Source of the DNA: Candidatus Electronema sp. JM
GTDB lineage: Bacteria > Desulfobacterota > Desulfobulbia > Desulfobulbales > Desulfobulbaceae
DNA length: 64,000 nucleotides
Direction: 5' to 3'
NCBI RefSeq assembly: GCF_048287415.1
Contig: NZ_JBLWEN010000001.1
Location: 88,790-152,789 of the forward strand
Shown: piece by piece, positions 20,287-64,000 of the stretch
Numbering within the stretch: position 1 is the first letter of the stretch
Layout of the letters: each line of letters opens with the position of its first letter
Program-made: the position numbers and the translations under genes
Notes under the pieces: model-generated
The model's input: the letters and a program-made list of their open reading frames with translations, nothing else
What the model was told of the DNA's origin: nothing
Database searches by the model: none

Positions 20287-20376
20287 GTTACGGTCTATTC
20301 AAAATCAATTACAAGGAAAATTTTTATGGTTATTCCGAGCACAACGAGGAATCTTTGCTGCTTCTGAAACATCCAT

Positions 20377-21864: not shown

Positions 21865-22029
21865 GTGTGCTCGTGGTGTATTGCAAGAAACGATGCAGGC
21901 AGGCTGCGGGGACAGTCGCCGCAGCGCCTTTACACATTCGATTCTAAAACTTCCTCATCGCCAACCTACGCTTGGCTGCGCAACTGCTTCGGATAAGGCT
22001 GTATCAACGTTGGCAGGCCAGCTCCGATC

Positions 22030-32000: not shown

Positions 32001-32022
32001 GGGGCGAAAAATTTTTCGCCCC
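32001..32022. repeat. Copy 1 of a 22-bp perfect-palindrome hairpin element, GGGGCGAAAAATTTTTCGCCCC
   Basis: An exact palindrome is seen with flank tgta...tgctgc. The same element recurs at 60482 and, degenerate and inverted, at about 63749. Confidence 0.85.
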
Positions 32023-42929: not shown

Positions 42930-42942
42930 TTTTGATCTCTCT

Positions 42943-43353: not shown

Positions 43354-43534
43354 AGTTTTTTCTCAATGTCTCAAGTTGTTCCAGCAGCCAGAGCAATTCA
43401 GGCTTGACAAGGGCAGGCTGCCGATGAATACTGCGCTGCTCAGTATGTGATCACCTGCAATAAATTTCAAGTATTTTAAAAGGGCTTTTGAGCTGCCTTG
43501 CTGCCTGTCTCGGCGGTGCAACAGCGGAGGCCGT

Positions 43535-43592
43535 CACATCGTTTACATTGAAAAAACAAGGCTACAGGTCACAGCTTGGATTGAGCATTTAC
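43535..43592. promoter_or_regulatory. Conserved ~55-bp boundary element, copy A: ATTGAAAAAACAAGGCTACAGGTCACAGCTTGGATTGAGCATTTAC
   Basis: It is near-identical to 48998..49056 (ATTGAAAAAGCAATGTTATAGATCACAACTTGGATTGAGTGTATTG). Both copies lie 3' of a GC-rich minus-strand gene and 5' of an AT-rich minus-strand cassette. Confidence 0.6.
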
Positions 43593-43653
43593 GTCGAGGA
43601 AGTTTTCAAATTATCTAAAAACTGAAATACTACAGCTTGCATGTCCGGCAGCT

Positions 43654-48318: not shown

Positions 48319-48967
48319 TATATTTCTTAATATGCCTGAAAGCGGTCAACGCATCAAGGATGAAATCAAGCGATCCGGCTGGGCCATTGTAATGATAGAC
48401 ATTCTTCTTAGCCATGACCAATTCTCCGATATGCACTGGTGAAAAATCAGGATCAGCGCATGAAAGCTGGAACCATTCTCCTTCTTTTTTTTGAAACTTC
48501 CCCTGCATGGCTTCGATATCATAATTTGCCACCTGGTCATCTGTCGCCCGCCACATATTGTAGCTGCCATGCCCGACAAGCACGATGCTTTGATATTTTG
48601 GATCAGTGAGAACGTTCATGAAATCCGCTTTGGTAGCCGCAAAAAAATAGTCTATTTTTTCTCCTCTTGCATTAAAATACCACGTCCATGCCGGGTAGCT
48701 TCCCAAAAAGCCGAACGGCGGCGCCCAATAATCATAATCTGAAAAGGCATGTGCGGACAGCAGAATTGCGGCGTTCTTATCTGTTTTTGTAAGTAAATTT
48801 GAAGTGAATGCAATCGCCGCTATTGGTATATAAACTGCGATAAGAATAACAACATATTTTATCAGAGGCTTAATGCTGATAGTTCCAAATTTTTTCTTAA
48901 ATATAACGTGATATAAGCTCATGGGTGTCGTGCATGTTGAAATGATATAGCTTTTTCTTATGATCAA
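48302..48967 (-). CDS. Hypothetical membrane-anchored protein of 221 aa; an AT-rich single-gene cassette
   Basis: It has an N-terminal TM (VVILIAVYIPIAAIAF). The gene is visibly AT-rich. The conserved 55-bp element lies about 40-100 bp upstream on its strand. Confidence 0.4.
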   Translation of the reverse strand: MIIRKSYIISTCTTPMSLYHVIFKKKFGTISIKPLIKYVVILIAVYIPIAAIAFTSNLLTKTDKNAAILLSAHAFSDYDYWAPPFGFLGSYPAWTWYFNARGEKIDYFFAATKADFMNVLTDPKYQSIVLVGHGSYNMWRATDDQVANYDIEAMQGKFQKKEGEWFQLSCADPDFSPVHIGELVMAKKNVYHYNGPAGSLDFILDALTAFRHIKKYNVMEK

Positions 48968-48997
48968 AACTCTCAGCGTATATCCATGTCGTCACCT

Positions 48998-49056
48998 GAC
49001 ATGGCTTTAAATTGAAAAAGCAATGTTATAGATCACAACTTGGATTGAGTGTATTG
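48998..49056. promoter_or_regulatory. Conserved ~55-bp boundary element, copy B
   Basis: See copy A. It overlaps the last approximately 10 codons of the histidine kinase ORF (...KDNTLNPSCDL*). Confidence 0.6.
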
Positions 49057-50525
49057 TCCTTCATTTTTTTCACCGGCAGGCTGATGAAAAACGCCGCGCC
49101 CTGCCCCTGCGCACTCTCAACCGTGATTGCGCCACCGTGCTTGGTGATGATCTCGCGGGTCACAGCCAAACCAAGGCCGCTGCCCTTGCCAACTTCCTTG
49201 GTGGTGTAGAAAGGATCAAAGATTTTCTCCATATCCACTGCCGCGATGCCGGGGCCGTTGTCGCGCACTTCAATACGGAGCAGCCCTTCCTCTGCCGCGA
49301 TGCCTGCTTTGAGCAAAATCTGCCCTGCGCCGTCCAAGGCTTGCGCTGCATTGCGGAGAATATTGATCAGAGCCTGCTGGAGCTGCCGCTTGTCAGCGCA
49401 GAAGAGGCCGTCCTGCGTGATTTCAGTGCGGAACTCAAGCGTGTCCGGGATGTCGCCTTTGACCAATTTGCAGGTCTCGCGGATGAACGCGCCCAGCTCC
49501 AGCTCTTTGGGCCGCACTTCGCGGTCATGGGCGAACTCCAGCAGAGAGCGGATGATGTTCCGCGCCCGGTCTGTTTCCTCGTCTATCTGCGCGGCCATTT
49601 CAAGCAGAAAGTCGCTGTCCGGCAGGTTTGCCTCCTGCAATTCTTCCAGCAGTATCTGCGCCGAGGTGCTGGCGTTGGAAAGCGGGTTGTTCAGCTCATG
49701 CGCCACGCCCGCCACCAAAGTGCCGACCGCCGCCATCTTTTCGCTCTGGACGAGCTGCTTCTCGCGCTTGTCTAAAATCTCCATCATGTGACAAATCGCC
49801 TTGCTCACCGCCTGGATTTCCACCGGATCAGCAGCATCTTCCCAGCAGGTGAAATTGCCTGCGGCGATGCTGTGGGTGTAATCCACAATATGCTGAAGCG
49901 GCTGCACAATCAAATTGCGCATCTGCCTGCCAAGAAGCAGGGCCATGCCAGCCACAGCAGCGACAAGGAGCAGTCCGGCAACTTTCAGGCGGGCCAGCTT
50001 CCGGTCTATCGCCTCGCGGATGTTCCGGTTCATCGCCCCAGACAGATTCACCAGCTCCTTGCCTGCGCTGCGGATGGCCTCCTCATTCAGATGACGGCGA
50101 TTCGTCTGAAAGAAGGCGAATTCCGCATCCATGAGCTGGCGATAGCGGAACAGCTCGTCCTGCAAGCGCACCTTAGCCTTGCGGTCTTCCCCAACCTGCT
50201 TTTCCCGAAGCAGCATGAAGGCATTCTCAATCTGCGCTTGGTTCTCAAGGAACTCCTGCTGCTCGCGGTACAGGAGCCAGTTCTTCTCATAACGGCGGAT
50301 TTCCAGCACGGTGTCAGTCAGGGCGGCGACAGACTCCAAGGTGGAGACGCGCTGGCGGATGTCGGCAAGGCCCACAGCCACCATGAGGGTGATCGTGGCG
50401 GCCAGCAGCACCATCAGGCAGTAGCCAAGCTGGATGCGCCGGACAAGGCTGTTCGGTAGACGGCTGATAATGGATTGCATAATGCAATAGTGCTCTCTGA
50501 AATGCAACAGCCCTTGCAGGCCCAA
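49026..50525 (-). CDS. Sensor histidine kinase (two TM segments, HAMP, HisKA, HATPase_c)
   Basis: The H-box is VAHELNNPLSNASTSAQIL and the G-boxes are DNGPGIAAVDMEKIFDPFYTTK...GSGLGLAV. It is a paralog of the kinase at 58536. Confidence 0.85.
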   Translation of the reverse strand: MGLQGLLHFREHYCIMQSIISRLPNSLVRRIQLGYCLMVLLAATITLMVAVGLADIRQRVSTLESVAALTDTVLEIRRYEKNWLLYREQQEFLENQAQIENAFMLLREKQVGEDRKAKVRLQDELFRYRQLMDAEFAFFQTNRRHLNEEAIRSAGKELVNLSGAMNRNIREAIDRKLARLKVAGLLLVAAVAGMALLLGRQMRNLIVQPLQHIVDYTHSIAAGNFTCWEDAADPVEIQAVSKAICHMMEILDKREKQLVQSEKMAAVGTLVAGVAHELNNPLSNASTSAQILLEELQEANLPDSDFLLEMAAQIDEETDRARNIIRSLLEFAHDREVRPKELELGAFIRETCKLVKGDIPDTLEFRTEITQDGLFCADKRQLQQALINILRNAAQALDGAGQILLKAGIAAEEGLLRIEVRDNGPGIAAVDMEKIFDPFYTTKEVGKGSGLGLAVTREIITKHGGAITVESAQGQGAAFFISLPVKKMKDNTLNPSCDL

Positions 50526-50726
50526 GCAGTCTGACCTTTTCTATGCAATCGGGCCAGACTGTTGCCTCTTGCAGCAGCGGCAGGCTGACAGGCTGAATCC
50601 GCACCTGCGCTTGTCAGCGTATATCAAGGCATTGCTGGCGTTTTTCTCAACTGGCACAGACCTTGCATTAATTAAACCAAGTGTACTCGGAACTTCCGCT
50701 TTTCACCACATACAAGGAGAAAAATC

Positions 50727-50912
50727 ATGAAACTCGCCTGCACGCTCCGCTGTCTGCTTGAAGAAACCTTTGCCGCCGCCGCTTTTGCTGAAGAAGGCCA
50801 GCATGAAACCGCACGGGAGCTGCTCCGCAAGGAGGAGGCCGAGCGGGCCGCCCGCCGGGCTGCGTCAGTCGGCGGCGACTGCTGCCTGACAGCGGCAGCC
50901 CCTGCCGCATGA
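50727..50912 (+). CDS. Small 61-aa protein with an ETFAAAAFAEEGQHETAREL motif. A second 30-aa paralogous ORF follows at 50910..51002 (MKSAVKGIKMQLNSLLRLLAKTFAEEGGHK).
   Basis: The two adjacent small ORFs share the core LL..TFA(A)EEG.H and sit upstream of the TauE/TIGR02186 pair. RBS-like GGAGAAAAATC precedes the first. Confidence 0.3.
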   Translation: MKLACTLRCLLEETFAAAAFAEEGQHETARELLRKEEAERAARRAASVGGDCCLTAAAPAA

Positions 50913-51341
50913 AGTCAGCAGTCAAAGGAATAAAAATGCAGCTCAACAGCCTGCTCCGCCTGCTGGCAAAGACTTTTGCCGAGGAGGGCGGGCATAAATG
51001 AAGGGGAGCAAAGCACGTGCTGCAGCTGCTCCGCCAGCAAAAGAAAGCAGCCTGCCACTCTCGCCGCCGCCATCTGACACCAGCGCGGCTCAACTCGGCA
51101 CTCTTCTGTTTTTTTCTCGCAGCATCCTAAAAATACGGCTGTTTCAGCCTGCCGTGTTATTTCAGCGTTCTTCCTGCTGAAATAATGTGTCAGGCTGCTG
51201 TTTTCCTCTTTGCTTCCGCCGCAGAATTGAGTAAATAACTCCCGCTGAAGCTGCGTGCGCAGCACTGTCTGCCAGTCTGCGCCGCAACCTGCTCTGCCTG
51301 CAAACAAATTGAACCACTTCAACATAAAGGAGAGACCAACG

Positions 51342-52265
51342 ATGTACATGTACCTGCCTGTCGCCCTCACCAGCGTGAACTTCCTGCTGGTGTCGGGCAT
51401 CGGATTCACGGTCGGAATGCTGTCCGGCCTTTTCGGCGTGGGAGGTGGCTGGCTGATGACCCCCCTGCTGATGATGATCGGCATTCCGCCCACCATTGCT
51501 GCGGGCACGGACGCGAACCAGATTGTGGCCGCCTCCACCTCCGGCATGTACACCCACTGGCGGCTGGGCAATGTGGACTACAAGATGGGCATCTGTCTGC
51601 TCATCGGCAGCTTCCTCGGCGGCGCTTTCGGCGTGCAGGTCATCAAAGTGCTCACCGCCACTGGCGGCGCGGACTTCCTGATCAAGATCACCTACGTGCT
51701 CATGCTGGGCATAGTCGGCTCCTTCATGTTTGTCGAGAGCCTGACAGCGATGAAGAAGGCCAAGAGCGGCGAGGCCAAGCCTGCCGCGCCAAAGGACAAT
51801 GCCAAGAAGAGCCTGATCATGCGTCTGCCCTTGCAGACCACCTTTGAGAAGTCCGGCGTGTCCTTCTCCGCGCTGGTGCCGGTGGGCCTTGGCGCCTTTG
51901 TCGGCCTGCTGGCGGCGATCATGGGCGTGGGCGGCGGCTTCCTCATGGTGCCGGTGATGATCTACATGCTGCGCATTCCGATGCACGTGGTGGTCGGCAC
52001 CAGCCTGTTCCAGATCCTCTTCACCTGCATTGAGGTGACCTTCCTGCAAGCCTACTACAACCGGACTGTTGACTTCCTCCTCGCCCTGCTCCTCCTGATC
52101 GGCTCGGTCTTCGGCGCACAGATCGGAGCGAAGCTGGGCCGCAAGCTGCACGGCGACCAGCTCAAGATCCTCCTTTCCGTCATCGTCCTGTCCGTGACCG
52201 TGAAGCTGGTTTTCGACTTGATACTCCAGCCTGCCAACCTGCTTTCCTACGCTGGAGGACATTGA
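51342..52265 (+). CDS. TauE/SafE (DUF81, TSUP) family anion exporter
   Basis: It has two internal repeats with GxGGG motifs (LFGVGGGWLMTPLLMMIGIPP ; IMGVGGGFLMVPVMIYMLRIP). The start is at MYMYLPV, preceded by AAGGAG. Confidence 0.8.
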   Translation: MYMYLPVALTSVNFLLVSGIGFTVGMLSGLFGVGGGWLMTPLLMMIGIPPTIAAGTDANQIVAASTSGMYTHWRLGNVDYKMGICLLIGSFLGGAFGVQVIKVLTATGGADFLIKITYVLMLGIVGSFMFVESLTAMKKAKSGEAKPAAPKDNAKKSLIMRLPLQTTFEKSGVSFSALVPVGLGAFVGLLAAIMGVGGGFLMVPVMIYMLRIPMHVVVGTSLFQILFTCIEVTFLQAYYNRTVDFLLALLLLIGSVFGAQIGAKLGRKLHGDQLKILLSVIVLSVTVKLVFDLILQPANLLSYAGGH

Positions 52266-53029
52266 TCATGCGCATGATGAAAACAGCCCTGCTCGCAGCC
52301 GCCGCGCTCGCGCTCTCCGTTCATGCCGCCGCTGCGGCAAGCATTCAGGCCGCTCCGTCGGACATCAAAATATCCCTGTTCTACCACGGCGCGGCTGTGG
52401 AGGTCAAAGGACAGGCTGCGCCGGGCGAGGACGTGCTGGTCAAAGTCACGCCCTCCGAGCAGCATGAGTTCCACCTCAAATACAAGGGCAAGGCCGCAGG
52501 CATCTTCTGGATGAAGCTCGGCACCTTGGTGTTTGAGAACCTGCCCAGCACCTATCTGCTCGCCTCCTCCGGCCCGGTTGACAAGGTGCTGGACGCGGAG
52601 GCGCGGACTGCCGAGAACGCGGGCTTGGACGCTTTGCAGAAGAAGGCGGTGATCAAGGCGGAGAAAGGCGCGATGCCTGCTGGCGACTGGTTCGGCCAGT
52701 TCCTTGATTTCAAGAAGAAGGAGAAGCTCTACAATGTTGAGGAAGGCACGGTGAAGGTCGGCGCGGACGGCAGCTACAGCTACACGCTGGCCTGGCCGTT
52801 CCAGGCTCCTCCGGGCAGCTACAAGATTGAGGCTGTCACCGCCAAAAACGGCAAGGTGACAGGCCACGCCGAGACAGCGCTCACGGTTGAGCTGACCGGC
52901 ATTGTCGCCCTGCTGGCTAAGATGTCCGCTGACAACCGCACGCTGTACGGCATCATCTCCATTGTCGTGGCTGTCGCCGCCGGTTTCGGCGTGGGCATGA
53001 TCTTCAAGAAGGGCGGCGGCTCGCACTGA
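52262..53029 (+). CDS. TIGR02186-like periplasmic/TM protein, the usual DUF81 partner
   Basis: It has a signal peptide and then a soluble domain. The C-terminal TM is IISIVVAVAAGFGVGMIF. It overlaps the TauE stop by 4 nt. Confidence 0.5.
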   Translation: MIMRMMKTALLAAAALALSVHAAAAASIQAAPSDIKISLFYHGAAVEVKGQAAPGEDVLVKVTPSEQHEFHLKYKGKAAGIFWMKLGTLVFENLPSTYLLASSGPVDKVLDAEARTAENAGLDALQKKAVIKAEKGAMPAGDWFGQFLDFKKKEKLYNVEEGTVKVGADGSYSYTLAWPFQAPPGSYKIEAVTAKNGKVTGHAETALTVELTGIVALLAKMSADNRTLYGIISIVVAVAAGFGVGMIFKKGGGSH

Positions 53030-53208: not shown

Positions 53209-53293
53209 TTGCACTATAGTGGAAGCAGCCATTGCACTACAGTGGAAACCTCGGTTGCACCATAGTGCAAACATCGGTTGCACTATAGTGCAA
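53209..53293. promoter_or_regulatory. Array of four 16-bp palindromic sites (TTGCAC-NATA-GTGCAA) at exact 23-bp spacing, about 120 bp upstream of the ROCO start
   Basis: Units start at 53209, 53232, 53255 and 53278. Units 3 and 4 are perfect palindromes. Units 1 and 2 have the half-site variant GTGGAA. Confidence 0.8.
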
Positions 53294-53412
53294 CCGCAAG
53301 CCACAGCCTGCTGGCCGCTTGGCTGCGAGGAAGCTGCAAGTATCCGAGCCATGCTCGAAGGCATTGCAGGGGCACCCTTAGCACAACCACACACCCACGG
53401 AGGAACGAGGCG

Positions 53413-55434
53413 ATGAGCAAAGAAGAAGCCTTGCAGCTAATTAAAGAGGCTGCGGAGACAGGGGCAACGTGGCTTAATCTCTTTAATCAAGGATTGAGTG
53501 AAATACCACCTGAGGTGTTTGCGCTTAAGCAGCTCACCTATCTTGGTCTCACTCATAATCGTCTCGCCTTTCTACCGCCAGAACTGTTTGAGATGAAGCA
53601 GCTCACCCAGCTTGAACTCAGCGACAATTGCCTTATCTCATTACCGCCTGAGGTGTTTACACTCAAACAATTAACCTTGCTTAACCTCATTCGCAACCAC
53701 CTTGTCACCCTACCGCCAGAGATTAATCAACTACCCAAGTTAAAAGATATTTGGTCTTTCGATAACCCCCTCGTCTCTCCTCCTTACGAAATAGCTATCA
53801 AAGGCATCTCAGCCATACGCGAATACTTCGCTGAAATGGAAGGCGAGAGCAAGGAGCTGGCCGAGGTCAAGATCATCCTTGTGGGCGAAGGCGCATCGGG
53901 CAAGACCTCATTAGTCAGGCGGCTGCGCGGGGAGCAGTTCGACCCGCACGAGCCAATGACGCACGGCATCAGCATCAACAAATGGCGGCCCGCAAGCGCA
54001 GGCCAGCTGCCCTGCTGCAATGTCTGGGACTTCGGCGGCCAAGAGATCATGCACGCCACGCACCAGTTTTTCCTTTCCCGCCGCAGCCTGTACGTCCTTG
54101 TCCTCGACAACCGGCGCGACGAGCGGCCCGAATACTGGCTGCGCTACATCGAAACCTTCGGCGGCGATTCGCCGGTCTTAGTGGTGCTCAACAAGCAGGA
54201 CATCAATCCCGGCTTTGATCTCAACCGGCCTTTTCTGCACGAGAAATACCCGTTCATCAAGGGCTTTTGGCCGCTTTCCTGCCACAGCGGACAGGGCATG
54301 GCGGCATTCACGCAAGCCTTGCACGAGGAGTTAGACAAGGTGCCCTTGAGCAAGAACCGCTGACCCGCAACCTGGTTCCGGGCAAAGGAAAAGCTGGAGC
54401 AGCTGCACGAGCCGCGCATCAACTACGAACGCTTCGAGCAAATCTGCCTTGAAGCCGGGGTGAAGGGCGCGACCACGCAGCAGGTCTTGGTGGATTTCCT
54501 CAACGATCTGGGCACGGTCATTCACTTTGATCAATTTGAGCTGAACGATCATCACGTCCTTAATCCGCAATGGGTGACAGAGGCGGTGTACAAGATCATC
54601 AACGCGCCGTCGGTGGCACATGCCAAGGGCCTGCTGCACGTGGATGCGCTGGCGGACATCTTAGCAAAGAAGAAGGACAGCGAGCATCGTTATTATCCCG
54701 CTGATCACCATTACATCATCGAGCTGATGAAGAAGTTCGAGCTGTGCTATCAAGTGGGTGAGAGCGAGGTGCTGATACCGCAGCTTTTGGCCGTGCCTGA
54801 GCCTTCCTTCACCTTTTATTACAGCAATGCCCTGCGTTTTGTTCTCCATTATGAGGACTTCCTGCCGCCGTCTGTCATGCCCCGCTTTATTGTCAATCGG
54901 CATAAAGAGATTCAAGGCGAACTGCGCTGGCGCAGCGGCGTTGTCCTGAAGAATGCGCAGCTTGATGCCAGCGCGGTGGTGCGGGCGGATGACGAGGCCC
55001 GCCGCATTCATATCGCTGTGACCGGCAAGGAGCGCAAAATCTTCCTCGCCCTGATTTGGCTCACTCTGCGGGAAATCAATGCGGGCTTTGAAGGCTTGAA
55101 GGTCAGCGAGCGCGTGCCCATGCCGGATGAGCCGGAACGCAGCGTGGATTACGAGACACTTCTCAGCTATGCGGAACAGGGCTTGGAAAAGATTATCCCC
55201 GAAGGCACGAAAAAGGCATATAGTGTGAAAGAGCTGCTGGAACGGGTGCATTTCGCCAATGAAAGCGAGGGCAGGCAGATGCTGGCTTTGGCTGAGGGTG
55301 AACGGAAAGGCGGAGCAGTGAACAAAACAGGCGCCGCATTGAACACCATGTTCAAGCTGGAGCCTTCAGTTTTTGGCGTGGGAATCAACCTCAATGCGAT
55401 GTTTGACGCTCTGCTGAAATGGCAGAGGAAGTAA
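53413..55434 (+). pseudogene. ROCO-type signalling GTPase (LRR - Roc/Ras-like GTPase - COR) interrupted by a single in-frame TGA at 54361..54363
   Basis: There are LRRs at 53413 onwards. The Roc P-loop is ILVGEGASGKTSL, with DFGGQE and NKQD motifs. After the stop, the same frame continues (PATWFRAKEKLEQLHEPRINYERFEQICLEAG...) into a COR-like approximately 320 aa. The tool ORFs 53278..54363 and 54460..55434 are in the same frame. Confidence 0.8.
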
Positions 55435-55545
55435 GCCCGCAACCGCTTGGGCCTGAGAATCCTAAGTGCTTGGGATTTTGGCCGAGGCGTTGCTTTGAAT
55501 AACTCGCGCAGCTTATTGGCTGCTCTGAAGATAAAGAAATCTGCA

Positions 55546-55785
55546 ATGAGATGCGTATGCTGCGGAGGGCCGCTCAAAAGCGGCACAGTGACATTCAGCT
55601 ATGAGGATGAGGAAGCATACATCTTTGTTGAGCATGTTCCGGCTGATGTATGCAGTCATTGCGGCGAGAAAGTGTATTCCCCGGCTGTTGCGGACATGCT
55701 GCTGGATATCGCTCAAAGGAAGAGCGAGCCAGTCAAGATGCTCCATATCCCTGTTTATGATTTTGCTCAAACGAAGAGAACATGA
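55546..55785 (+). CDS. YgiT-type zinc-finger protein (MqsA N-terminal-domain-like, no HTH)
   Basis: It has two CxxC pairs (CVCCGG...CSHCGE) spaced as in the YgiT/MqsA zinc ribbon. Its stop overlaps the next start (ATGA). Confidence 0.55.
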   Translation: MRCVCCGGPLKSGTVTFSYEDEEAYIFVEHVPADVCSHCGEKVYSPAVADMLLDIAQRKSEPVKMLHIPVYDFAQTKRT

Positions 55786-57314
55786 CTCCACCTGTCGGCC
55801 TGGCCAAGCACGAGCAGCTGCAAGCGCTTGCAGCTCAATACGGCTGCCCTGTCCTGGAATACAGCGAGAAGGTCAGCGTGCCGTTCCTCATCCTCATTCA
55901 GCTCAATGCGGAGCAGCTGCGGCAGGAAGGCTGGCTGCCGCTACACGTCACGGAAGAGAAGGTGAAAATCCTCACGCACCGCGCCCCGGACGAGGTCGCC
56001 GCCGCTGTCCGCCAGACGCTGGGCGAGGTGGAGCTTGATTTTGTCCTCACTGTGCCGCATGACTTTATCCGGGTCTTTGAGCACAGCTGCGATCTCAACC
56101 CCAGATTCCCCATGCCCGCAGGCCGCACGCCGCTGGCCAGAGTGCGCACTTACTTCGCAGGCCGCCGCTCGCTTTTCGCGCACTACCGCACCTTGATGGC
56201 CAAAAGCCGCACCGATCTGGCCACCGTCCGCACCGCGCTGTCCTTCATGACCATCGCCCTGCTCGGCGTGCGGGTCTTCGGCCTGGGCACGCTGGCAGTG
56301 CTGGAGCTGCCGCTCTTTCTCCTCGGCGCATGGGTCTGCGTTGACAGCATCGTCAGCTACCTGCCTGCCCGCCGGGTGAAAAGCCGTCTGCCCGCCTGCT
56401 CCGGCACCACGCCGACCAACGGCACCACAGTCTTGGCGGCCTCGAACGCGGAGGATTTCCCGCTCTTCCGCCGCCTGCCTGAGACACCGGGCGCAGCCGC
56501 CTTGCGGGCAGGCTGGACCAAGCTCACCCCGCTGATGCGCCGCCGCTTTCTCGCCAGCGACCGCACCGACATGGCCGAGGAGCGGACAACGCTGGCCTGC
56601 CTCCGCACCAAAATGGCGAAGGCGCGCACCGGCCTGGCTTTTGTCCGCACCGGCCTGGCCTTTTTCTCCCTCGGCTTCGGCCTGATGCGGGCCTTTCCCG
56701 AAGTCATTTATTGGCACATCTTAGATGTGAGTTTGATGGCCGCCGGAATCCTCATGGCACTGGAAGGCTTCTTCTGGTATAAAAAAGGTCGGCCTGCGGG
56801 CGAGGAAGGGCAGGCTTCGGTGGAGAAAGCGAACAAGGCGGGCACGATCTGGGATTTCTTCTTCCCGCATGTCGCGGCCTGCCCCAGCCCCAATCCCCTG
56901 CAAACCCCGCCAGTGCGCCGCTCGCACGCGCCGGGCCTCTGGGCGACCACAGGTCTAGCTTTGGAGCGCACCGTCTTAGCTGACCGCCGCAATGTCATGG
57001 CGCGGCTACGGACGGTCATGGCCCGCTCGCGCACGGGCATGGCCTTCATCCGCACCGGCCTGAGCATCCTGCTGATCGGTGTCACCTTCTTGGTCTCCTT
57101 CCCGGATGCGGGCCTGCTCTGGCAGCTGCTCGACTGGTGCCTGATCCTCGGCGGCTCCGTCTTAGTTGCGGACGGCTTTTACTGGACGGTGCCTGCGGAG
57201 CGGAAACGGACGGAGTTCCCCTACTGCTTCGCGGATTTGGAAATAGCTCTGGCGGATTACGGCATTCCCTCCCGCCATTGGCGGAAGACGGTGTTTTATC
57301 GTGCAAGCAAGTAA
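55782..57314 (+). CDS. T2SS-E N-terminal (GspE_N/MshEN-like) domain fused to three DUF202 (YidH-like) membrane repeats
   Basis: The N-terminal approximately 110 aa resemble the GspE N-domain (AAQYGCPVLEYSEKVSVPFLILIQLNAEQLRQEGWLPLHVTEEKVKILTHRAPDEVAAAVRQTLG). Three blocks follow, each [RT.LA..RT.[LM]A..RT.LA..RTGL + hydrophobic helix]. Confidence 0.65.
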   Translation: MTPPVGLAKHEQLQALAAQYGCPVLEYSEKVSVPFLILIQLNAEQLRQEGWLPLHVTEEKVKILTHRAPDEVAAAVRQTLGEVELDFVLTVPHDFIRVFEHSCDLNPRFPMPAGRTPLARVRTYFAGRRSLFAHYRTLMAKSRTDLATVRTALSFMTIALLGVRVFGLGTLAVLELPLFLLGAWVCVDSIVSYLPARRVKSRLPACSGTTPTNGTTVLAASNAEDFPLFRRLPETPGAAALRAGWTKLTPLMRRRFLASDRTDMAEERTTLACLRTKMAKARTGLAFVRTGLAFFSLGFGLMRAFPEVIYWHILDVSLMAAGILMALEGFFWYKKGRPAGEEGQASVEKANKAGTIWDFFFPHVAACPSPNPLQTPPVRRSHAPGLWATTGLALERTVLADRRNVMARLRTVMARSRTGMAFIRTGLSILLIGVTFLVSFPDAGLLWQLLDWCLILGGSVLVADGFYWTVPAERKRTEFPYCFADLEIALADYGIPSRHWRKTVFYRASK

Positions 57315-58539
57315 CGAGACGCTCCTGACGGCCTTGGCCCGGAAGGGCGTTCTGCCGGCAGAGACGCTGGCGGAGATTGAGCAGGCCGCCACGCTGCGCG
57401 GGCTGGCGCCTGCGACGCTGCTGGTCTATGAGTACAATGTGCCGCGCGTCACGCTGCTGGAGGCCTTGGCTGAGATTCACGCCTGCCAGCCGGTGGAGTA
57501 TGATGAGCGGCTGCCCATCCCGCCGGACTTCCTGCCCAAGCTCTCCGGTCCGGCCTTGCTGAAGGAAGGCTGGTTCCCCATCTTCTTGGAGGAGGACGGC
57601 ACTGTGACGGTCGCCGCCTCCAACCCTGCCGCGCCGGGCCTGTGCGCTTCGGTGCGGCAGACGCTCGGATGCAGCAATGTGGTCTGCATGGTCACCCTGC
57701 CGGAGGACGTGCAGTGGTTCATTCAGGATTATCTGCACGCGCCGCCCGGCCTGCTTATCGGCACTGAGCGCACTGGCCTGGCCTATTGGCGCAACACCAT
57801 GGCCCAGTGGCGGACGCTGCTCGCCTGCTGCCGCACCGACATGGCCAAGGCGCGCACAGCACTGGCCTTTGGCCGCTTTGGCCTCTCGCTGATCACGGTC
57901 GCCATGACCTTGCTGCGCCTGACTCCGCCGCGCCTGCCCAAGCCTGCGGCCTTCCTCCTCCTGGCTTTGGGCCTGCTCTGCAACGGACTGGGCGTGGCGG
58001 TGTATCTGCGGATCCGCCGCTCGCAGCTACGCCCGCCCGGCAGCCAGACGATCATGGAAGTGACTGCGGCCACCATCTCGTTCTTGGAGCAGTACCATTT
58101 CCCGGAAGAGCTGAAGGGCAGCCTGCCGCCGCCGCAGACCGGCGCATCCATGCTCGCCCGCCTGGGAGAGCTGCTCGCCGACTACTCGACCATCCTTTTC
58201 CCGGCTCCGCCCAGCCGCGAGCGCACGCATCTGGCCCGTGAGCGCAACGTGCTGGCGGCCCAGCGCACGGTGGCTGCTTGTTACCGCACCATCTATGCCC
58301 GCGCCCGCACTGGGCTGGCCTTCACCCGCACTGGCGTGAGCTTCTTCAGCTTTGGCGTGGGCCTGATCCTCTATTTCGGCCTCGGCCTGAACACCATCTT
58401 TGATGCGCTGCTGATTGCCGCAGGCCTGCTGATGATCACCGACGGCCTGCTCTGGTATCTGCCGGTGCGCAAAGAGCAGGCCGAGCTGCCGCGCTCGCGC
58501 AGCGGTGCCCTGGCTGGCTGGGAGGATGACGACGAATGA
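57301..58539 (+). CDS. GspE_N/MshEN-like domain fused to two DUF202 membrane repeats (paralog of the upstream gene)
   Basis: The N-terminal region (LLTALARKGVLPAETLAEIEQAATLRGLAPATLLVYEYNVPRVTLLEALAEIH...WFPIFLEEDGTVTVAASNP) is followed by ERTGLAYWRNTMAQWRTLLACCRTDMAKARTALAF and RERTHLARERNVLAAQRTVAACYRTIYARARTGLAFTRTG. It has a GTG start that overlaps the upstream gene by 14 nt. Its stop overlaps the kinase ATG. Confidence 0.6.
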   Translation: MQASNETLLTALARKGVLPAETLAEIEQAATLRGLAPATLLVYEYNVPRVTLLEALAEIHACQPVEYDERLPIPPDFLPKLSGPALLKEGWFPIFLEEDGTVTVAASNPAAPGLCASVRQTLGCSNVVCMVTLPEDVQWFIQDYLHAPPGLLIGTERTGLAYWRNTMAQWRTLLACCRTDMAKARTALAFGRFGLSLITVAMTLLRLTPPRLPKPAAFLLLALGLLCNGLGVAVYLRIRRSQLRPPGSQTIMEVTAATISFLEQYHFPEELKGSLPPPQTGASMLARLGELLADYSTILFPAPPSRERTHLARERNVLAAQRTVAACYRTIYARARTGLAFTRTGVSFFSFGVGLILYFGLGLNTIFDALLIAAGLLMITDGLLWYLPVRKEQAELPRSRSGALAGWEDDDE

Positions 58540-59942
58540 AGATCCTGCACCGCATCTGCCTGTCTGACGCGATCAACATCTGCCTTTTGGTGCTGATCGG
58601 CCTCTTTGCGATCCACTCCTTTGACGAGCTGCTGGCCAAGTTCCGCTTCACCACGATTGCTGACGGCCTCAACGCGGCCTTTTTGGAAATGCGCATCGCC
58701 GAGAAGAACTATCTTCTTTACGGCGACAAGGAGGCCCTGAACTCCATTTCCACCCGCATTGCTGAGACTGTCCCGGTCTTGGAGAAAGAGCGGGAGAACA
58801 TCGAGCAGGTCACGGGCGGCAGCGACTACAAGTACCTTGTCCAGCTGCTGGCCGAGTACCGCAGCGATGTCCTTGCCCTGCGAGACGGGCATGGCGCGGA
58901 CAAGCGGGTGCGGGAGTCCGGCCACAGCCTGCGCGCCTTCTCCGAACATCTCACCGCCATGGAGCGGGACAAGGTGGCGCAGATCATCGAGCGCTCGAAA
59001 GCCGTGCTCCGTCATTCCTTCTGGGCGGTGATCTTCTTCGCCTTTGTCTTCACCCAGTGGAATGCGCGGAGCATCCGCCGTTCCCTTCGGCAGGTGGAGC
59101 AGCTGACACGCTCGATTGCCAAGGGCGAGTTCTCCCTTATCCAAGAGAAGCCAGCGGCAGATGAGCTGGGTTCCATCGTCCAGGCGATCAGCACGATGTC
59201 GGACGAACTGAACCGGCGCGAAGAGGAGATTGTCCGCTCCAAGCGCCTGGCTTCCATTGGTGTGTTGGTGGCCGGTGTGGCCCATGAGCTGAACAATCCG
59301 CTCAACAACATCTCCATGATTGCGCAGACCTTCACAGAGCTGCACGACAAGCTGAACAGCGGGCAGCAGCTGGAGTTCATGGCCCAGATTGATGAGGAGA
59401 CCGAACGCCTGCGGGTGACAATCAAGAACCTGCTTGATTTCTCCAAGCCCAAGGAGAAGGAAATGGAGCCGCGCTGCCTGAACGAGGTGGCGCAGAAATG
59501 CATTGGCTTAGTGCAGAACATGCTGACCATCGGCAACATCCGCACCAAGCTGGCCTTGGCCGAAAACCTGCCCCAGCTCTGCTTGGACGAGCACCAGATT
59601 CAGCAGGTGCTGGTGAACATGCTGATCAACGCCATTCAGGCCATGCCGCCCGGCGGCGTGCTCAGTGTCAGCACCCGCCTGCTGCCTGAGCAGCACATGG
59701 CGGAAATAGAAATCAGCGACACCGGCAAGGGCATTCCGCCGGAGCTGATCAACCACATCTTCGACCCCTTCTTCACGACTAAAGACGAGGGCGGCACCGG
59801 CCTTGGTCTCTGGGTCAGCTACGGAATCATCAAAAACCACGGCGGGGAGATTCACGTCAAGAGCACAGTGAACAAGGGCACGACCTTCACTGTCACCCTG
59901 CCGACAGACTTGGAGCGATGTCAGCTATGCACAGCATCATGA
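58536..59942 (+). CDS. Sensor histidine kinase (two TM segments, HAMP, HisKA, HATPase_c)
   Basis: The H-box is VAHELNNPLNNISMIAQTF. The G-boxes are DTGKGIPPELINHIFDPFFTTK and GGTGLGLWV. Confidence 0.85.
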   Translation: MKILHRICLSDAINICLLVLIGLFAIHSFDELLAKFRFTTIADGLNAAFLEMRIAEKNYLLYGDKEALNSISTRIAETVPVLEKERENIEQVTGGSDYKYLVQLLAEYRSDVLALRDGHGADKRVRESGHSLRAFSEHLTAMERDKVAQIIERSKAVLRHSFWAVIFFAFVFTQWNARSIRRSLRQVEQLTRSIAKGEFSLIQEKPAADELGSIVQAISTMSDELNRREEEIVRSKRLASIGVLVAGVAHELNNPLNNISMIAQTFTELHDKLNSGQQLEFMAQIDEETERLRVTIKNLLDFSKPKEKEMEPRCLNEVAQKCIGLVQNMLTIGNIRTKLALAENLPQLCLDEHQIQQVLVNMLINAIQAMPPGGVLSVSTRLLPEQHMAEIEISDTGKGIPPELINHIFDPFFTTKDEGGTGLGLWVSYGIIKNHGGEIHVKSTVNKGTTFTVTLPTDLERCQLCTAS

Positions 59943-60307
59943 TTATTGACGACGAACGGATAGTGGGCGACATGGCCAAACTGTCCCTCAGTCAGGATGG
60001 CTACGATGTGGAAACGTTTCTCGACGGCGAGAGCGCGCTGAGGCGGCTCAAGGAGAAGAGCTTCGCTGTCGTGGTCACGGATTTGAAGATGAAAGGCGTG
60101 GACGGGCTGGAAGTCTTGCGCAACGTCAAGCAGCTTTATCCGGCAACAGCGGTGATCATGATCACTGCCTTCGCCAATCTTGATGTGGCCATCGAGGCTC
60201 TGCGCGACGATGTTTTTGATTTCTTCCCCAAGCCGGTGAAGATCAAAGACCTGAAAGCGTCGGTCAAGCGGGCAGTGGAAAAGGGAAACATGCCGCAGGC
60301 AGGCTGA
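59918..60307 (+). CDS. Single-domain response-regulator receiver (CheY-like)
   Basis: Key motifs are IMIIDDE...VVVTDLKMKGVDG...ITAF...K. It overlaps the kinase 3' end. Confidence 0.8.
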   Translation: MSAMHSIMIIDDERIVGDMAKLSLSQDGYDVETFLDGESALRRLKEKSFAVVVTDLKMKGVDGLEVLRNVKQLYPATAVIMITAFANLDVAIEALRDDVFDFFPKPVKIKDLKASVKRAVEKGNMPQAG

Positions 60308-60481
60308 GTCTGTGGCTGCTGTCGGCGATGGAGTTCTTCCTGGCAGCTTATGCTCTGGCAGAGGACACCATTATGCTTGACAAGAGGACAACGTTATCCT
60401 CTTGCGGAGCATAACATTATGCTCTTTGGCTGCATAGTGCTATGCAGCGGCAGCAGCAAATATGGTCGTGGCAATGGTGTA

Positions 60482-60503
60482 GGGGCGAAAAATTTTTCGC
60501 CCC
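60482..60503. repeat. Copy 2 of the GGGGCGAAAAATTTTTCGCCCC palindrome
   Basis: It is identical to copy 1 and has similar flanks (gtgta...tgcagc). Confidence 0.85.
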
Positions 60504-60542
60504 TGCAGCATTGCGGAAAACATGCAAAGGAGGAACGAGGCG

Positions 60543-60674
60543 ATGAACAAAGAAGAAGCCTTGCGGCGGATTAAACACGTGGAGGAGACAGGAGCAACGA
60601 GGCTTGATCTGAGCTTTCAAAGATTGACTGAACTGCCGCCTGAACTCTTTCAAATAAAAAATGAACCAACTTGA
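60543..60674 (+). pseudogene. 43-codon stub of a ROCO/LRR-family N-terminus with a conserved RBS region
   Basis: MNKEEALRRIKHVEETGATRLDLSFQRLTELPPELFQ... parallels MSKEEALQLIKEAAETGATWLNLFNQGLSEIPPEVFA... at 53413. The upstream GGAGGAACGAGGCGATGA is shared with the ROCO gene. Confidence 0.6.
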
Positions 60675-63261
60675 TAGTTCTGCCGACAAAGGAGCAACTC
60701 TCCGCAGCCTGTGGACTGCCTTGCTCAAGCTGCTGCCGGGCCGCAGCGCGCCGCCAGTCAGCCCGCGTCTGGTCTTTGAACGCTTTCAGAAGGTGCTGGC
60801 CAGCAACAATCAGGCTTTGGAGATCATTGCCGATCTGGGCGAGAAGCTGGGCGGCGACTACCTCTTTGACATGCGCTATGTTGAGTCCTCGGTTGAGGAG
60901 CTGATTGCGGCGGTGCACAGCTCAGTGCTGGCGGTGAATGAGCTGTGCGGCGACCGTCACGCCAAGCTGCATCAGGTGCATGAGCGTCTGAGCGAGGACT
61001 TGCGCCTGACCCTGGCTGGCCGTGAAGACCGCGAGGGGCCGCTGATCTTCACGCTGGATGAGATCCGCCCGCGCAACTGGGCCTTGGTCGGCGGCAAGGC
61101 CGCGCACTTGGCGGTGATGCGGCATGATCCGCAGCTGCGCGTGCCGGACGGCTTTGTCATCACCGCCCGCGCCTACAACGATCTGATTGACCATAACGGC
61201 CTGCGGCAGCAGCTCACTGCTTTTGAGGAGCTGATGTCCGCCACTGAGCCGGATGCCGACCTGCTGGAGGAGCAGCGCAGCTTGATTGAACAGGCCGTGC
61301 TCGCTGCCGCGCCGCCGCCGGGCCTGTTGGACGCGCTTGCCCAAGCAGCAGGCCGTCTGCCGCAGACCAGCAAGCCGCTCTTCTTGGCGGTGCGCAGCTC
61401 GGCGCAGGAGGAAGACATGGACTTCTCCTTTGCCGGCCAGTTCACGTCGGTGCTCAACGTGCCTGCCCAGCCGGATGCGCTCTTTGCTGCTGCCCGCGAG
61501 GTGATGGCCAGTCTGTTCTGCGCCGGGGCTGTGTCGTACCGCCGCCGCGTCTTCCCGGATGAAGGCAAGATGGCTATTGCCGTGGTCTGCCAGCGGATGG
61601 TGGATTCCCGCAGCAGCGGCATCGTCTTTTCGGTGGACACCATGCAGCTCGCTCACGACACGATGGTGGTGGTGGCCGCGTGGGGCCAAGGCGAGGCGGT
61701 GGTGGAAGGCGGCACAGCCACTGACACCTTCCAGCTCCACAAGGGGCCGCCGCTGCGCATCGCTGCCCGGCAGGTGGCGGACAAAGAGCAAGGCCTCTTT
61801 GCCGGAGCCGAGAGCGGCCTGACCAGCCGGGCCATCGCCAAGGAGCTGCGCACTGCGTCCTGTCTCTCAGACGATGAGCTGCTCCAGCTTGGCAGCACAG
61901 CCCTGCACTTGGAAACGCTCTTCAAGCGGCCGCAGGACATCGAATGGGCCTTTGACAGCAGCGGCCAGCTCTACATTCTCCAAGCCCGGCCCTTGGTGCT
62001 CAACACCCCGGCGCGGGAAAAGGCCCTGCCAGTCCGTGTGGAGCAGCACGAGGTCATCTGCGCCGGACAAGGCAAAGTGGCCCAGCAAGGCATTGCCGCC
62101 GGGCCAGTGCATTTGGTCAATTTTGCTGAGGAGACCGGCGAGTTCACGGAAGGCTCAGTGCTGGTCACGCACCACGATTCCTCCCGCCTCGTCACCTACA
62201 TCCAGCGGGCCGCCGGTGTCATCACCGAGACCGGCACGCCGGTCAGCCACATGGCCACCATCTGCCGCGAGTTCCAAGTGCCCTGCTTGGTCAATGTGGG
62301 CAGCATCCTCGGCAAGGTGCGCGAAGGCGAGCTGATCACCGTGGACGCGGAAGACCGCCGCATCTATCGAGGCTTAGTTGACGAGCTGCTGGTCTATCGC
62401 GCCACCTCCTGCATCAACCTGATGTCCAGCCGCGAGTTCCGCCTGCTCCGCCGCATTCTCAAGAAGGTCTCTGAGCTGCATCTGGTGGATCCGATGATGC
62501 AGGACTTCAGCATAGACGGCTGCCGCACCTATCACGACATTCTCCGCTTCTCGCATGAGTCAGCAGTGCAGGAGATGGTCAACCTTGGCCGCGATGAGCG
62601 GCGGCTGATCAAGGGCAGCATCGTCCGGCCGATGAAGCTGCCCATTCCCACCGGCATTCTGGTGATTGACATCGGCGGCGGCCTTGCCTCTGACGCGCCT
62701 GAGCGCGATGTGCCGTTTCAGGCCATTGCTTCCGTGCCCTTCCGTGCTGTGCTGCAAGGGATGCTCTTCCCGGAGATATGGCACAACAATCCTATGCCGG
62801 TAGGCATCCGCGACCTGATGAACAGCATGTTCAGTCCGATCCGCGAAGAGGCGGCGGAGCAGTACAGCGGCCACAACATCGCCATCATCGGCGGAAATTA
62901 TGTCAATCTTTGCTTTCGTCTGGGCTATCATTATAATATTATAGACGCGCACTGCGGCGAGGCGGAGCAGAACAACCATCTTTACTACCGCTTTCTGGGC
63001 GGCGTGACGGACATGACCAAACGCTCGCGCAGGGCGGCGATGATCGCGCAGATACTCAAGGAGTTCGAGTTCAATGTCCAGACCAAAGGCGACCTGGTCA
63101 CAGCCCGGCTCTCGCGCCTGCCGCAGCGGGAGGCCGAGCGCGCGCTGGACATCCTTGGCAGACTGGTGGGCTACACCCGCCAGCTGGATGTGCGCATGGA
63201 GAGCGACAATGATCCGGGCAGATATGCCGAAGCGTTCCTGAACGGGGAATACAGGGTTTGA
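60661..63261 (+). CDS. PEP-synthase/PPDK-like protein. It has PPDK_N ATP-grasp and PEP-utilizing phosphohistidine domains. The approximately 290-aa C-terminal region does not resemble the canonical PEP-binding barrel.
   Basis: Motifs include NWALVGGKAAHLAVM, FVITARAY, LFLAVRSSAQEEDMDFSFAGQFTSVLNV, AVVCQRMVDSRSSGIVFSVD, and the His domain TGTPVSHMATICREFQVPCLVNVG...GELITVDAEDRRIY. Confidence 0.8.
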   Translation: MNQLDSSADKGATLRSLWTALLKLLPGRSAPPVSPRLVFERFQKVLASNNQALEIIADLGEKLGGDYLFDMRYVESSVEELIAAVHSSVLAVNELCGDRHAKLHQVHERLSEDLRLTLAGREDREGPLIFTLDEIRPRNWALVGGKAAHLAVMRHDPQLRVPDGFVITARAYNDLIDHNGLRQQLTAFEELMSATEPDADLLEEQRSLIEQAVLAAAPPPGLLDALAQAAGRLPQTSKPLFLAVRSSAQEEDMDFSFAGQFTSVLNVPAQPDALFAAAREVMASLFCAGAVSYRRRVFPDEGKMAIAVVCQRMVDSRSSGIVFSVDTMQLAHDTMVVVAAWGQGEAVVEGGTATDTFQLHKGPPLRIAARQVADKEQGLFAGAESGLTSRAIAKELRTASCLSDDELLQLGSTALHLETLFKRPQDIEWAFDSSGQLYILQARPLVLNTPAREKALPVRVEQHEVICAGQGKVAQQGIAAGPVHLVNFAEETGEFTEGSVLVTHHDSSRLVTYIQRAAGVITETGTPVSHMATICREFQVPCLVNVGSILGKVREGELITVDAEDRRIYRGLVDELLVYRATSCINLMSSREFRLLRRILKKVSELHLVDPMMQDFSIDGCRTYHDILRFSHESAVQEMVNLGRDERRLIKGSIVRPMKLPIPTGILVIDIGGGLASDAPERDVPFQAIASVPFRAVLQGMLFPEIWHNNPMPVGIRDLMNSMFSPIREEAAEQYSGHNIAIIGGNYVNLCFRLGYHYNIIDAHCGEAEQNNHLYYRFLGGVTDMTKRSRRAAMIAQILKEFEFNVQTKGDLVTARLSRLPQREAERALDILGRLVGYTRQLDVRMESDNDPGRYAEAFLNGEYRV

Positions 63262-63273
63262 CAAGGAGACGGA

Positions 63274-63717
63274 ATGCAGCTTACAACCACGGCCAGCGAC
63301 AGCTCTGACCTGCTCATTATTGATGACGAGCCGATCATCGGCAAGCGGCTGCAACACACCTTCAGCAAAATTGGACTGAACGCGCAGGCCTTCACCAGCC
63401 CGCAGGCGGCGATGGAGCGTATCAGCAGTGCGCCGGTCCATGTGGTGATCACCGATTTCCGCATGAAGGGCATGGACGGCCTGGAGGTCTTCCGCCAGGT
63501 CAAAAAATTGAGTCCGCGCAGCAAGGTGATCATCATCAGCGGCTACGCCAGCCCGGAGACGGTGGACATCGCTTTTCAGGAAGGGGTGTTCGATTTTCTC
63601 GTCAAGCCGTTCCGCTTGGACGAACTGAAGGAGGCGGTGCGTCGGGCGCTGGAGGAGATCAGCAGGGAGCGGAAAGCAGAAGCGTCAGCCGCGCCATCTC
63701 CAGTGTATGGCATGTAG
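63274..63717 (+). CDS. Single-domain response-regulator receiver
   Basis: Key motifs are LLIIDDE...VVITDFRMKGMDG...IISGY...K. It starts 12 nt after the PPDK-like stop. Confidence 0.8.
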   Translation: MQLTTTASDSSDLLIIDDEPIIGKRLQHTFSKIGLNAQAFTSPQAAMERISSAPVHVVITDFRMKGMDGLEVFRQVKKLSPRSKVIIISGYASPETVDIAFQEGVFDFLVKPFRLDELKEAVRRALEEISRERKAEASAAPSPVYGM

Positions 63718-63748
63718 AATTGTCCCCTGCGTTGAGTGGCTACGTGAT

Positions 63749-63776
63749 GCAGCAGGGGCGAAAAATTTTTCACACC
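63749..63776. repeat. Degenerate, inverted copy 3 of the palindromic hairpin element (GCAGCAGGGGCGAAAAATTTTTCACACC)
   Basis: Its reverse complement matches ggtgt-GAAAAATTTTTCGCCCC-tgctgc of copies 1 and 2, with 6 nt of the left arm deleted. Confidence 0.6.
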
Positions 63777-64000
63777 TTATATTAGAGCCTGTTACTGTTA
63801 ACACTAGACCTCTTGCGTAAGTCACAACTTATTGATAAAAGAAGCTATGACCTGTTAGCATTATTTGATTGCAATCACGATCAAGGCAAAAACGACAAAC
63901 CCGATGAACATGACATCCAGTTTGTCAAACCGGGTGAAGATGCGGCGGAATCCCTTCAGCCTTCTGAACAGCCGCCCGACTTCATTCCGTTTTTCATACA

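Follow-up and report, generated by a model that had tools for sequence, protein, structure and literature searches.

In phosphoenolpyruvate (PEP) synthase (PpsA, EC 2.7.9.2) and pyruvate phosphate dikinase (PPDK), a PPDK_N ATP-grasp domain is followed by a swivelling PEP-utilizers histidine domain and a PEP/pyruvate-binding TIM barrel (PEP-utilizers_C, PF02896), and catalysis proceeds by an AMP-forming phosphohistidine mechanism. Other described systems are rifampin phosphotransferase (RPH), HpeHI/CreHI, phenylphosphate synthase and PigC/RedH, none of which is receiver-linked; the mechanism of small-molecule dikinases, summarised in PMC12167813, is the template for the model proposed below. 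Enzyme I of the phosphotransferase system (PTS) and EI-Ntr also carry a swivel phosphohistidine domain and are a precedent for donation to a protein, but enzyme I uses PEP via a TIM barrel, has no ATP-grasp domain, and its acceptor is a His of HPr/NPr, not a receiver Asp. A 64,000 nt stretch of the Candidatus Electronema sp. JM genome (contig NZ_JBLWEN010000001.1, positions 88,790 to 152,789; the whole stretch is called the window) encodes an 866 aa PPDK-like protein, PPDKL, with ATP-grasp and His domains in the same order as PpsA and PPDK. Unlike those enzymes, it has an unrelated alpha/beta domain in place of the barrel and an extra N-terminal helical bundle, and it belongs to a group with several paralogues, encoded among two-component and membrane-protein genes. 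PPDKL and its parts are as follows.

60661..63261, + strand: PPDKL, 866 aa PPDK_N and PEP-utilizers protein (Pfam)
60661..61035, + strand: N-terminal helical bundle, residues 1–125, motif ADLGEKLGGDYLFD (AlphaFold2 helices 35–62, 71–95 and 103–119)
61084..62040, + strand: ATP-grasp nucleotide-binding domain, residues 142–460 (PF01326, PPDK_N, 4e-74)
62143..62352, + strand: swivel phosphohistidine domain, residues 495–564 (PF00391, PEP-utilizers, 4.2e-17)
62383..63258, + strand: C-terminal domain, residues 575–866, presumed to bind the acceptor (family of 1136 representatives; invariant residues)

The VRSSA-EED, SFAGQ, QDIEW and T-x-x-G-x-x-x-x-H motifs of PpsA and PPDK are conserved in PPDKL. 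The His530 codon (62248–62250) lies within GTPVSHMATICREF, and the swivel-His peptide picked out in a first-pass annotation was located at 62233–62277. H530 is invariant in an alignment of four paralogue classes from Desulfobulbales and Nitrospirota, as are T522, G525 and the ATP-grasp motifs. The site itself reads V-S-H, compared with T-S/C-H in PpsA and PPDK, and there is no regulatory Thr two residues N-terminal to the His. With an ATP-grasp domain, a swivel His and a separate acceptor domain, PPDKL has the make-up of the broad ATP-grasp/swivel-His dikinase superfamily. It is predicted to use ATP in an AMP-forming reaction, as a swivel-histidine dikinase of the PEP synthase/rifampin phosphotransferase superfamily, and to be gated by a receiver, a reading given a probability of about 50%.

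PPDKL falls outside the PpsA and RPH/PigC families of that superfamily. The NCBIfam PpsA models (NF005057 and TIGR01418) score below their curated equivalog cutoffs (312 against 598 bits, and 297.7 against 739.75) and align only up to residue ~575 of 866. The RPH/PigC models fail by a wider margin (NF041857, 202 bits against a cutoff of 999; NF052631, 197 against 1300), aligning over the ATP-grasp domain and a second stretch of unlocalised position. Sequences of PpsA, RPH and HpeI in the PDB match residues ~125–577 only. RPH differs in domain order as well, its acceptor domain lying between the ATP-grasp and His domains, whereas PPDKL has its own at the C-terminus, with no relation in sequence or fold to that of RPH. 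The N-terminal region gave nothing consistent in Pfam at E ≤ 10; the full-length AlphaFold2 model shows a three-helix bundle across residues 35–119.

The last 292 residues (575–866) have no consistent Pfam match at E ≤ 10, a search that included 12 diverse C-domains, and no NCBIfam match. Searches of the PDB by sequence and by a 12-member profile, and of 72,556 plasmids by tblastn, also returned no match for this domain. The PEP/pyruvate TIM barrel was found neither by Pfam in PPDKL nor in its AlphaFold2 model, where residues 574–651 of the domain form a helical segment and residues 655–860 an antiparallel sheet against which helices pack. The full-length model has a mean predicted local distance difference test score (pLDDT) of 83.7 and a predicted template modelling score (pTM) of 0.74; the C-domain modelled alone has a pLDDT of 73.8. 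Profile searches, PDB searches and the model agree with the first-pass annotation that the C-terminal ~290 aa differ from the PEP-binding barrel, and the standard PEP/pyruvate-binding domain that it had named as a finding that would refute its proposal was not detected by profiling or in the structure. Sub-threshold Foldseek matches, mainly to the DHHA1 fold (AlaRS C-Ala, RecJ/Cdc45, PAP phosphatase) and to type III secretion (T3S)-chaperone/YbjN-like folds, serve as leads only. A DHHA1-fold phosphoesterase or C-Ala identity for the domain was rejected, as no significant sequence or fold match was obtained with the GGGH motif included in the test.

The C-domain has 25 positions that do not vary among the four paralogue classes or between the two phyla, and 24 of these are also invariant in the full-length alignment. 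They include H625, D626, R629, H632, E633, D670, G674, N749, H757 and D762, along with N772, R788, R791, D811, R840 and D843. The series H625-D626-x-x-R629-x-x-H632-E633 lies on one helix, and D670 and G674 are part of a D-I-G-G-G loop. Because the invariant polar residues are dense and common to all paralogues, they look like an active site.

PPDKL is a member of a large unnamed family connected with two-component signalling and marked by a new C-terminal domain, presumed to bind the acceptor. Thousands of PPDK_N proteins came up in a word-indexed search; the best 120 are full-length relatives (~860 aa, 49–98% identity), and any names they bear go no further than 'PEP/pyruvate-binding domain-containing protein', 'PEP-utilizing enzyme' or 'pyruvate, water dikinase'. 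Used by itself as the query of an exhaustive HMMER search, the C-domain matched 1136 representatives of 50%-identity clusters at E ≤ 1e-3 and 445 at E ≤ 1e-30, nearly always as the C-terminus of a protein of ~830–900 aa. No characterised member or study of the family was found in the literature searched.

Open reading frame (ORF) coordinates and a Pfam scan place PPDKL among six co-oriented + strand genes at 55782–63717, an array that is a real and statistically solid feature. The other five genes are listed below.

55782..57314, + strand: DUF202a, membrane protein with an MshEN-like N-terminus and two DUF202 domains (Pfam DUF202, 2.3e-12; MshEN, 1e-4, just below cutoff)
57301..58539, + strand: DUF202b, paralogous membrane protein with MshEN and two DUF202 domains (Pfam MshEN, 4.4e-08; DUF202, 1.3e-11)
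58536..59942, + strand: HK1, membrane sensor histidine kinase (Pfam HAMP, 1e-07; HisKA, 4.8e-12; HATPase_c, 3.6e-28)
59918..60307, + strand: RR1, single-domain receiver, D54 (Pfam, 1.8e-26)
63274..63717, + strand: RR2, single-domain receiver, D61 (Pfam, 5.3e-26)

The order histidine kinase (HK), receiver, PPDK-like protein, receiver given by the first-pass annotation is correct. Adjacent genes overlap by 14 nt (DUF202a/DUF202b), 4 nt (DUF202b/HK1) and 25 nt (HK1/RR1), the last making it probable that HK1 and RR1 are a cognate pair. A 353 bp spacer separates RR1 from PPDKL, and 12 nt lie between the PPDKL stop codon and RR2. HK1 has the HisKA H-box and HATPase_c domain of a two-component kinase, and both receivers retain a complete phospho-acceptor set (D11/D12/D54/T83/K105 in RR1, D17/D18/D61/S89/K111 in RR2).

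The link to receivers extends to gene fusion. One C-domain match, P0188 (987 aa), ends in a Response_reg domain, and a search with it found at least 45 clusters (90% identity) that combine PPDK_N, PEP-utilizers, C-domain and receiver, at 44–100% identity. All of 27 diverse fused proteins keep the catalytic His and the C-domain invariants, and receiver residues D861, D862, D905 and K955 are invariant, with T933 nearly so. Together with the synteny described below, fusions of this kind (Rosetta-stone evidence) strongly support a functional coupling of dikinase and receiver. A second sequence correlate is the N-terminal motif D[ML]GEKLxGxYxFD, present in 58 of 62 receiver-adjacent copies and in the consensus of the receiver-fused subfamily, and absent from 67 of 75 others. 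Response regulators with enzymatic output and hybrid HKs similarly tie a receiver to an enzyme or kinase, split or fused, with D-D-D-T/S-K intact; the difference is that the PPDKL module is a dikinase, not GGDEF, CheB, HD-GYP or HisKA-HATPase, and that the receiver is C-terminal in the fused form. Two of the fused genes (loci L082 and L083) lie in the order HK, TauE, Alph_Pro_TM, PPDKL::REC, stand-alone REC, where REC is a receiver. Further PPDKL paralogues are found nearby at both loci, and Cytidylate_kin2 and Cytidylate_kin2+BON proteins recur beside these genes; tandem Usp proteins hold a similar place in Nitrospirota loci. Cytidylate_kin2 and Usp are nucleotide-binding families.

A scan of GTDB species genomes yielded 80 loci, all of which were annotated against the window proteins, with pre-computed gene calls also used. 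The closest are from Desulfobulbaceae UBA5173 (86% identity) and Candidatus Electronema (74% and 72%). Desulfurivibrionaceae, Desulfocapsaceae, Desulfobulbaceae, Dissulfuribacterales and Thermodesulfatator carry a super-locus in the order sigma-54 response regulator, small ORF, TauE, Alph_Pro_TM, PPDKL-A, RR2-type receiver, second histidine kinase (HK2), PPDKL-B, PPDKL-C, DUF202a, MshEN-DUF202b, HK1, RR1, PPDKL-D. Its A-type proteins are orthologous in type to the window PPDKL (49–57% identity), while B, C and D share ~34%, ~31% and ~36%, respectively. Nitrospirota loci run sigma-54 promoter, small ORF, TauE, Alph_Pro_TM, Usp genes, DUF202a, DUF202b, HK1, RR1, a single PPDKL (38–40%), a second HK and a sigma-54 regulator, so that loci hold between one and four PPDKL paralogues.

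Within these loci, 56 of 60 scorable A-type genes have Alph_Pro_TM as their immediate upstream neighbour, and a single-domain RR2-type receiver is directly downstream in 57 of 62, with two more cases being ORF-calling artefacts. RR1 directly precedes the D/Nitrospirota-type PPDKL in 9 of 12. The receiver linkage that had been noticed in the window is therefore real and old (57–59 of 62 A-type and 9 of 12 D/Nitrospirota-type genes, plus the fusions in at least 45 clusters). DUF202a orthologues lie upstream of HK-RR1 in both Desulfobulbales and Nitrospirota, and the tandem pair of MshEN-like proteins with two DUF202 domains is kept upstream of HK1-RR1 across phyla. MshEN is of the cyclic di-GMP-binding type, and in eukaryotes DUF202 forms the membrane domain of the VTC polyphosphate polymerase subunits. 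RR1 of the window is 73–79% identical to the RR1 of Desulfobulbales and Nitrospirota loci (L033, L068, L074); relative to Nitrospirota, the neighbouring HK (45–50%) and PPDKL (38–40%) are far more diverged, which suggests either that this single-domain receiver is under unusual constraint or that it was transferred recently.

The genes that precede PPDKL-A in relatives have counterparts in the window, upstream of the array.

50652..50667, + strand: sigma-54 type promoter, consensus TGGCACAGACCTTGCA, 603 bp upstream of TauE
50727..50912, + strand: putative 61 aa ORF after the promoter, with motif AAFAEEGQHETARELL, which recurs in relatives
51255..52265, + strand: TauE/SafE-family anion permease (Pfam TauE, 3.7e-49)
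52262..53029, + strand: Alph_Pro_TM membrane protein, partner of TauE, its gene overlapping the TauE stop codon (Pfam PF09608, 2.9e-44)

The promoter is the single perfect match to TGGCAC-N5-TTGCW within the 64 kb, and 18 related loci, Nitrospirota among them, carry the relaxed form TGGC[AC][CT]-N5-TTGC[AT] 546–948 bp upstream of TauE. The relaxed motif was not found within 1200 bp 5′ of the other scored locus genes, except for two sites upstream of Alph_Pro_TM. The motif of the small ORF follows the pattern M-x-A-x-x-F-A-E-[AE]-G-[EQ]-[FH]-x-T-A-[KR]-E-[IL]; it also occurs in the first ORFs of Nitrospirota loci (L072, L074 and L078) and as an insert in the ATP-grasp region of PPDKLs at two other loci (L068:10571 and L071:3534).

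The locus is carried by organisms that disproportionate sulfur, oxidise sulfide or reduce sulfate (Dissulfurimicrobium, Thiovibrio, Desulfurivibrio, Ca. Sulfobium, Thermodesulfatator and cable bacteria); its Nitrospirota hosts are sulfate-reducing. A 2026 proteomic study of Dissulfuribacter thermophilus reported a 'PEP synthase' (DITHS69_1988), a 'transmembrane protein co-occurring with TauE' (1989) and TauE (1990), increased by 3.40, 1.79 and 1.56 log2, respectively, under thiosulfate disproportionation, and the first was read by its authors as gluconeogenesis (PMC13490349). Since the gene order matches TauE, Alph_Pro_TM, PPDKL-A, DITHS69_1988 is very probably a member of the PPDKL family.

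What is not conserved is the placement of PPDKL between two receivers, to which the first-pass annotation had drawn attention. The deeply conserved units are PPDKL-RR2 and HK1-RR1(-PPDKL), and the sandwich in the window is a lineage-specific join of the HK-RR1 and PPDKL-RR2 modules. In most Desulfobulbales the A-type PPDKL comes after Alph_Pro_TM, not after a receiver; in the window, Alph_Pro_TM is followed by a Roco gene and an MqsA-like ORF (53278–55785), and the A-type PPDKL-RR2 pair is placed after HK1-RR1. The four-gene arrangement, whose presence in relatives had been put forward as a check, is not kept even in close relatives. In Ca. Electronema sp. the RR1-PPDKL junction is split by a 4.2 kb insert that carries genes for PIN-like, NB-ARC/TPR and YhcG nuclease proteins, and in Ca. 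Electronema halotolerans the PPDKL-RR2 pair stands alone, flanked by an M16 peptidase gene and murG-murC-murB.

The catalysis, direction of control, receiver contact site and acceptor that we infer are as follows. The ATP-grasp domain would pyrophosphorylate or phosphorylate His530, and the His domain would then swing to the C-terminal domain, where the phosphoryl group would be passed to an acceptor held there. A small molecule that is anionic or bears phosphate is the probable acceptor, judging from the abundance of invariant Arg, His, Asp and Asn positions and from the D-I-G-G-G loop. PEP, which had been offered beside ATP as a possible phosphate donor, is unlikely in this role because PPDKL has no PEP-binding domain while its ATP-grasp motifs are intact. 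A canonical HK would phosphorylate the receiver encoded beside the dikinase (RR2 in the window, RR1 for the D/Nitrospirota paralogue, the fused domain in the sister subfamily), and the phosphorylated receiver would turn the dikinase on or off, probably via the N-terminal helical bundle. The dikinase would then be the output of a two-component pathway in a sigma-54-controlled locus that also encodes TauE/Alph_Pro_TM and MshEN-DUF202 membrane proteins.

Control of the enzyme by a receiver is a more economical reading than direct His-to-Asp transfer, because each receiver in relatives has an adjacent canonical HK. It is favoured also by the Nitrospirota loci, where the second HK pairs with the sigma-54 regulator and HK1-RR1 is left with PPDKL as its only obvious effector, and by the D[ML]GEKLxGxYxFD motif, which tracks receiver adjacency. 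Several points weigh against it. The correlation of motif with receiver is at clade level, with few clades and non-independent counts. The C-domain modelled alone reaches only a moderate pLDDT (73.8), rising mostly to 75–95 inside the full-length model. No metabolic gene in the locus hints at an acceptor, and it is gene order alone that assigns DITHS69_1988 to the family. Lastly, PPDKL-RR2 persists in Ca. E. halotolerans as two genes on their own, no HK beside them, and the fused gene with another receiver after it recalls a hybrid kinase; either pattern could equally be explained by PPDKL phosphorylating the receiver directly.

The best-surviving alternative, unlikely but with definite points in its favour, is a phosphorelay of the kind first suggested for this locus. 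PPDKL would be an alternative, AMP-forming 'histidine kinase' whose His530~P donates to, or accepts from, the Asp of RR2 or RR1, possibly via H625 or H632 of the H-D-x-x-R-x-x-H-E helix, with the C-domain as a receiver-docking or relay module. PPDKLs might in that case be a second, evolutionarily independent class of receiver kinase acting on the Asp of the adjacent or fused receiver, in a phosphorelay bypassing or cross-wiring canonical histidine kinases, a proposition no less doubtful. The conserved minimal pair of a kinase-like protein and a receiver, kept even with no HK adjacent, is what such a relay would look like, as is PPDKL::REC followed by a stand-alone REC, which recalls a hybrid HK with its response regulator. 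The conservation of RR1 (73–79% across phyla, against 38–50% for its neighbours) is as expected of a receiver with several partners, and the weak fold matches of the C-domain include T3S-chaperone/YbjN-like protein-binding folds. Phosphohistidine is chemically able to donate to receivers, this being established two-component chemistry, and the swivel His domain of PTS enzyme I donates to proteins. Set against this, canonical HKs lie beside both receiver types in most loci, and paralogues B and C retain the invariant C-domain residues yet have no receiver of their own, which also speaks for a gated enzyme. The ~25 invariant charged or polar positions are atypical of a docking surface, no HPt or DHp match was found in Pfam or PDB profile searches, and we know of no ATP-grasp dikinase that phosphorylates a protein.

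More doubtful again is a version in which the acceptor is a nucleotide or other phospho-compound (AMP/pAp/APS-type, or polyphosphate) and the locus serves stress or second-messenger functions, not the handling of sulfur anions. That PPDKL is an ordinary gluconeogenic PEP synthase with a coincidental receiver neighbourhood, as suggested by the source names 'pyruvate, water dikinase' and 'PEP/pyruvate-binding domain-containing protein', by the label in one proteomics paper and by PpsA being the best NCBIfam match, is refuted by the absent barrel (PEP-utilizers_C), and is made more improbable still by a PpsA match that ends at ~575 of 866 residues with 312 bits against a 598-bit cutoff, by up to four paralogues per locus, and by the conserved receiver synteny and fusions.

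The join between the two modules in the window is associated with a repeated palindrome.

60482..60503, no strand: perfect 22 nt palindrome GGGGCGAAAAATTTTTCGCCCC, inside the 353 bp RR1-PPDKL spacer
63755..63776, no strand: second copy with 2 mismatches, 38 nt after RR2

Three copies occur in the window (32001–32022, 60482–60503 and 63755–63776; 0 expected by chance), two of which bracket PPDKL-RR2. The palindrome may be an element like repetitive extragenic palindromic (REP) sequences or a bidirectional terminator, and may mark the junction of the two modules or a rearrangement. An Rfam scan of 55000–64000 at E ≤ 1 gave two chance snoRNA-like matches and no riboswitch or leader in the RR1-PPDKL spacer, and a simple scan found no sigma-70 promoter there. 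The bacterial Roco gene (53278–55434, + strand) encodes leucine-rich repeats (LRR) and a Roc GTPase (53278–54363) and COR-A/COR-B (54460–55434) in one reading frame, interrupted by a single in-frame TGA at 54361–54363; the gene could be a pseudogene, or the stop could reflect recoding or a sequencing error. The Roco gene and the MqsA-like ORF (55447–55785) occupy the site of the PPDKL paralogues or Usp genes of relatives.

Further PPDKL paralogues, HK2 and a locus-type sigma-54 regulator were sought in the 64 kb window, which contains one PPDKL only, without B, C or D paralogues and without HK2; the NtrC-type regulator nearest to the locus (11429–12796) is 40 kb away. It belongs to a pair at 9207–12796 (+ strand), a 746 aa HK and an NtrC-type sigma-54 regulator, the latter 37% identical to the locus-type regulator of Thiovibrio. 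A HisKA/HATPase kinase is encoded divergently at 49026–50525 (− strand), just 5′ of the sigma-54 promoter. The missing locus regulator or kinase could be this pair or the divergent kinase. The GC content falls to 0.40–0.51 at 18000–22000, 40000–44000 and 48000–50000, against a background of ~0.58–0.62, which suggests that these blocks are horizontally acquired islands.

If PPDKL is a receiver-gated dikinase, more than 1000 sequence clusters labelled 'PEP synthase' or 'PEP/pyruvate-binding protein' would be misannotated, and at least one proteomics reading, that of gluconeogenesis, would have been misled. The new acceptor domain would widen the swivel-His dikinase superfamily to another substrate, and two-component signalling would gain a new enzymatic output or, on the bolder reading, a new receiver kinase. 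Cultured hosts of the locus include Dissulfurimicrobium hydrothermale, Thiovibrio sp. JS02 and Hydrosulfovibrio ferrireducens, and the locus may mark an unrecognised step of anaerobic sulfur or stress physiology.

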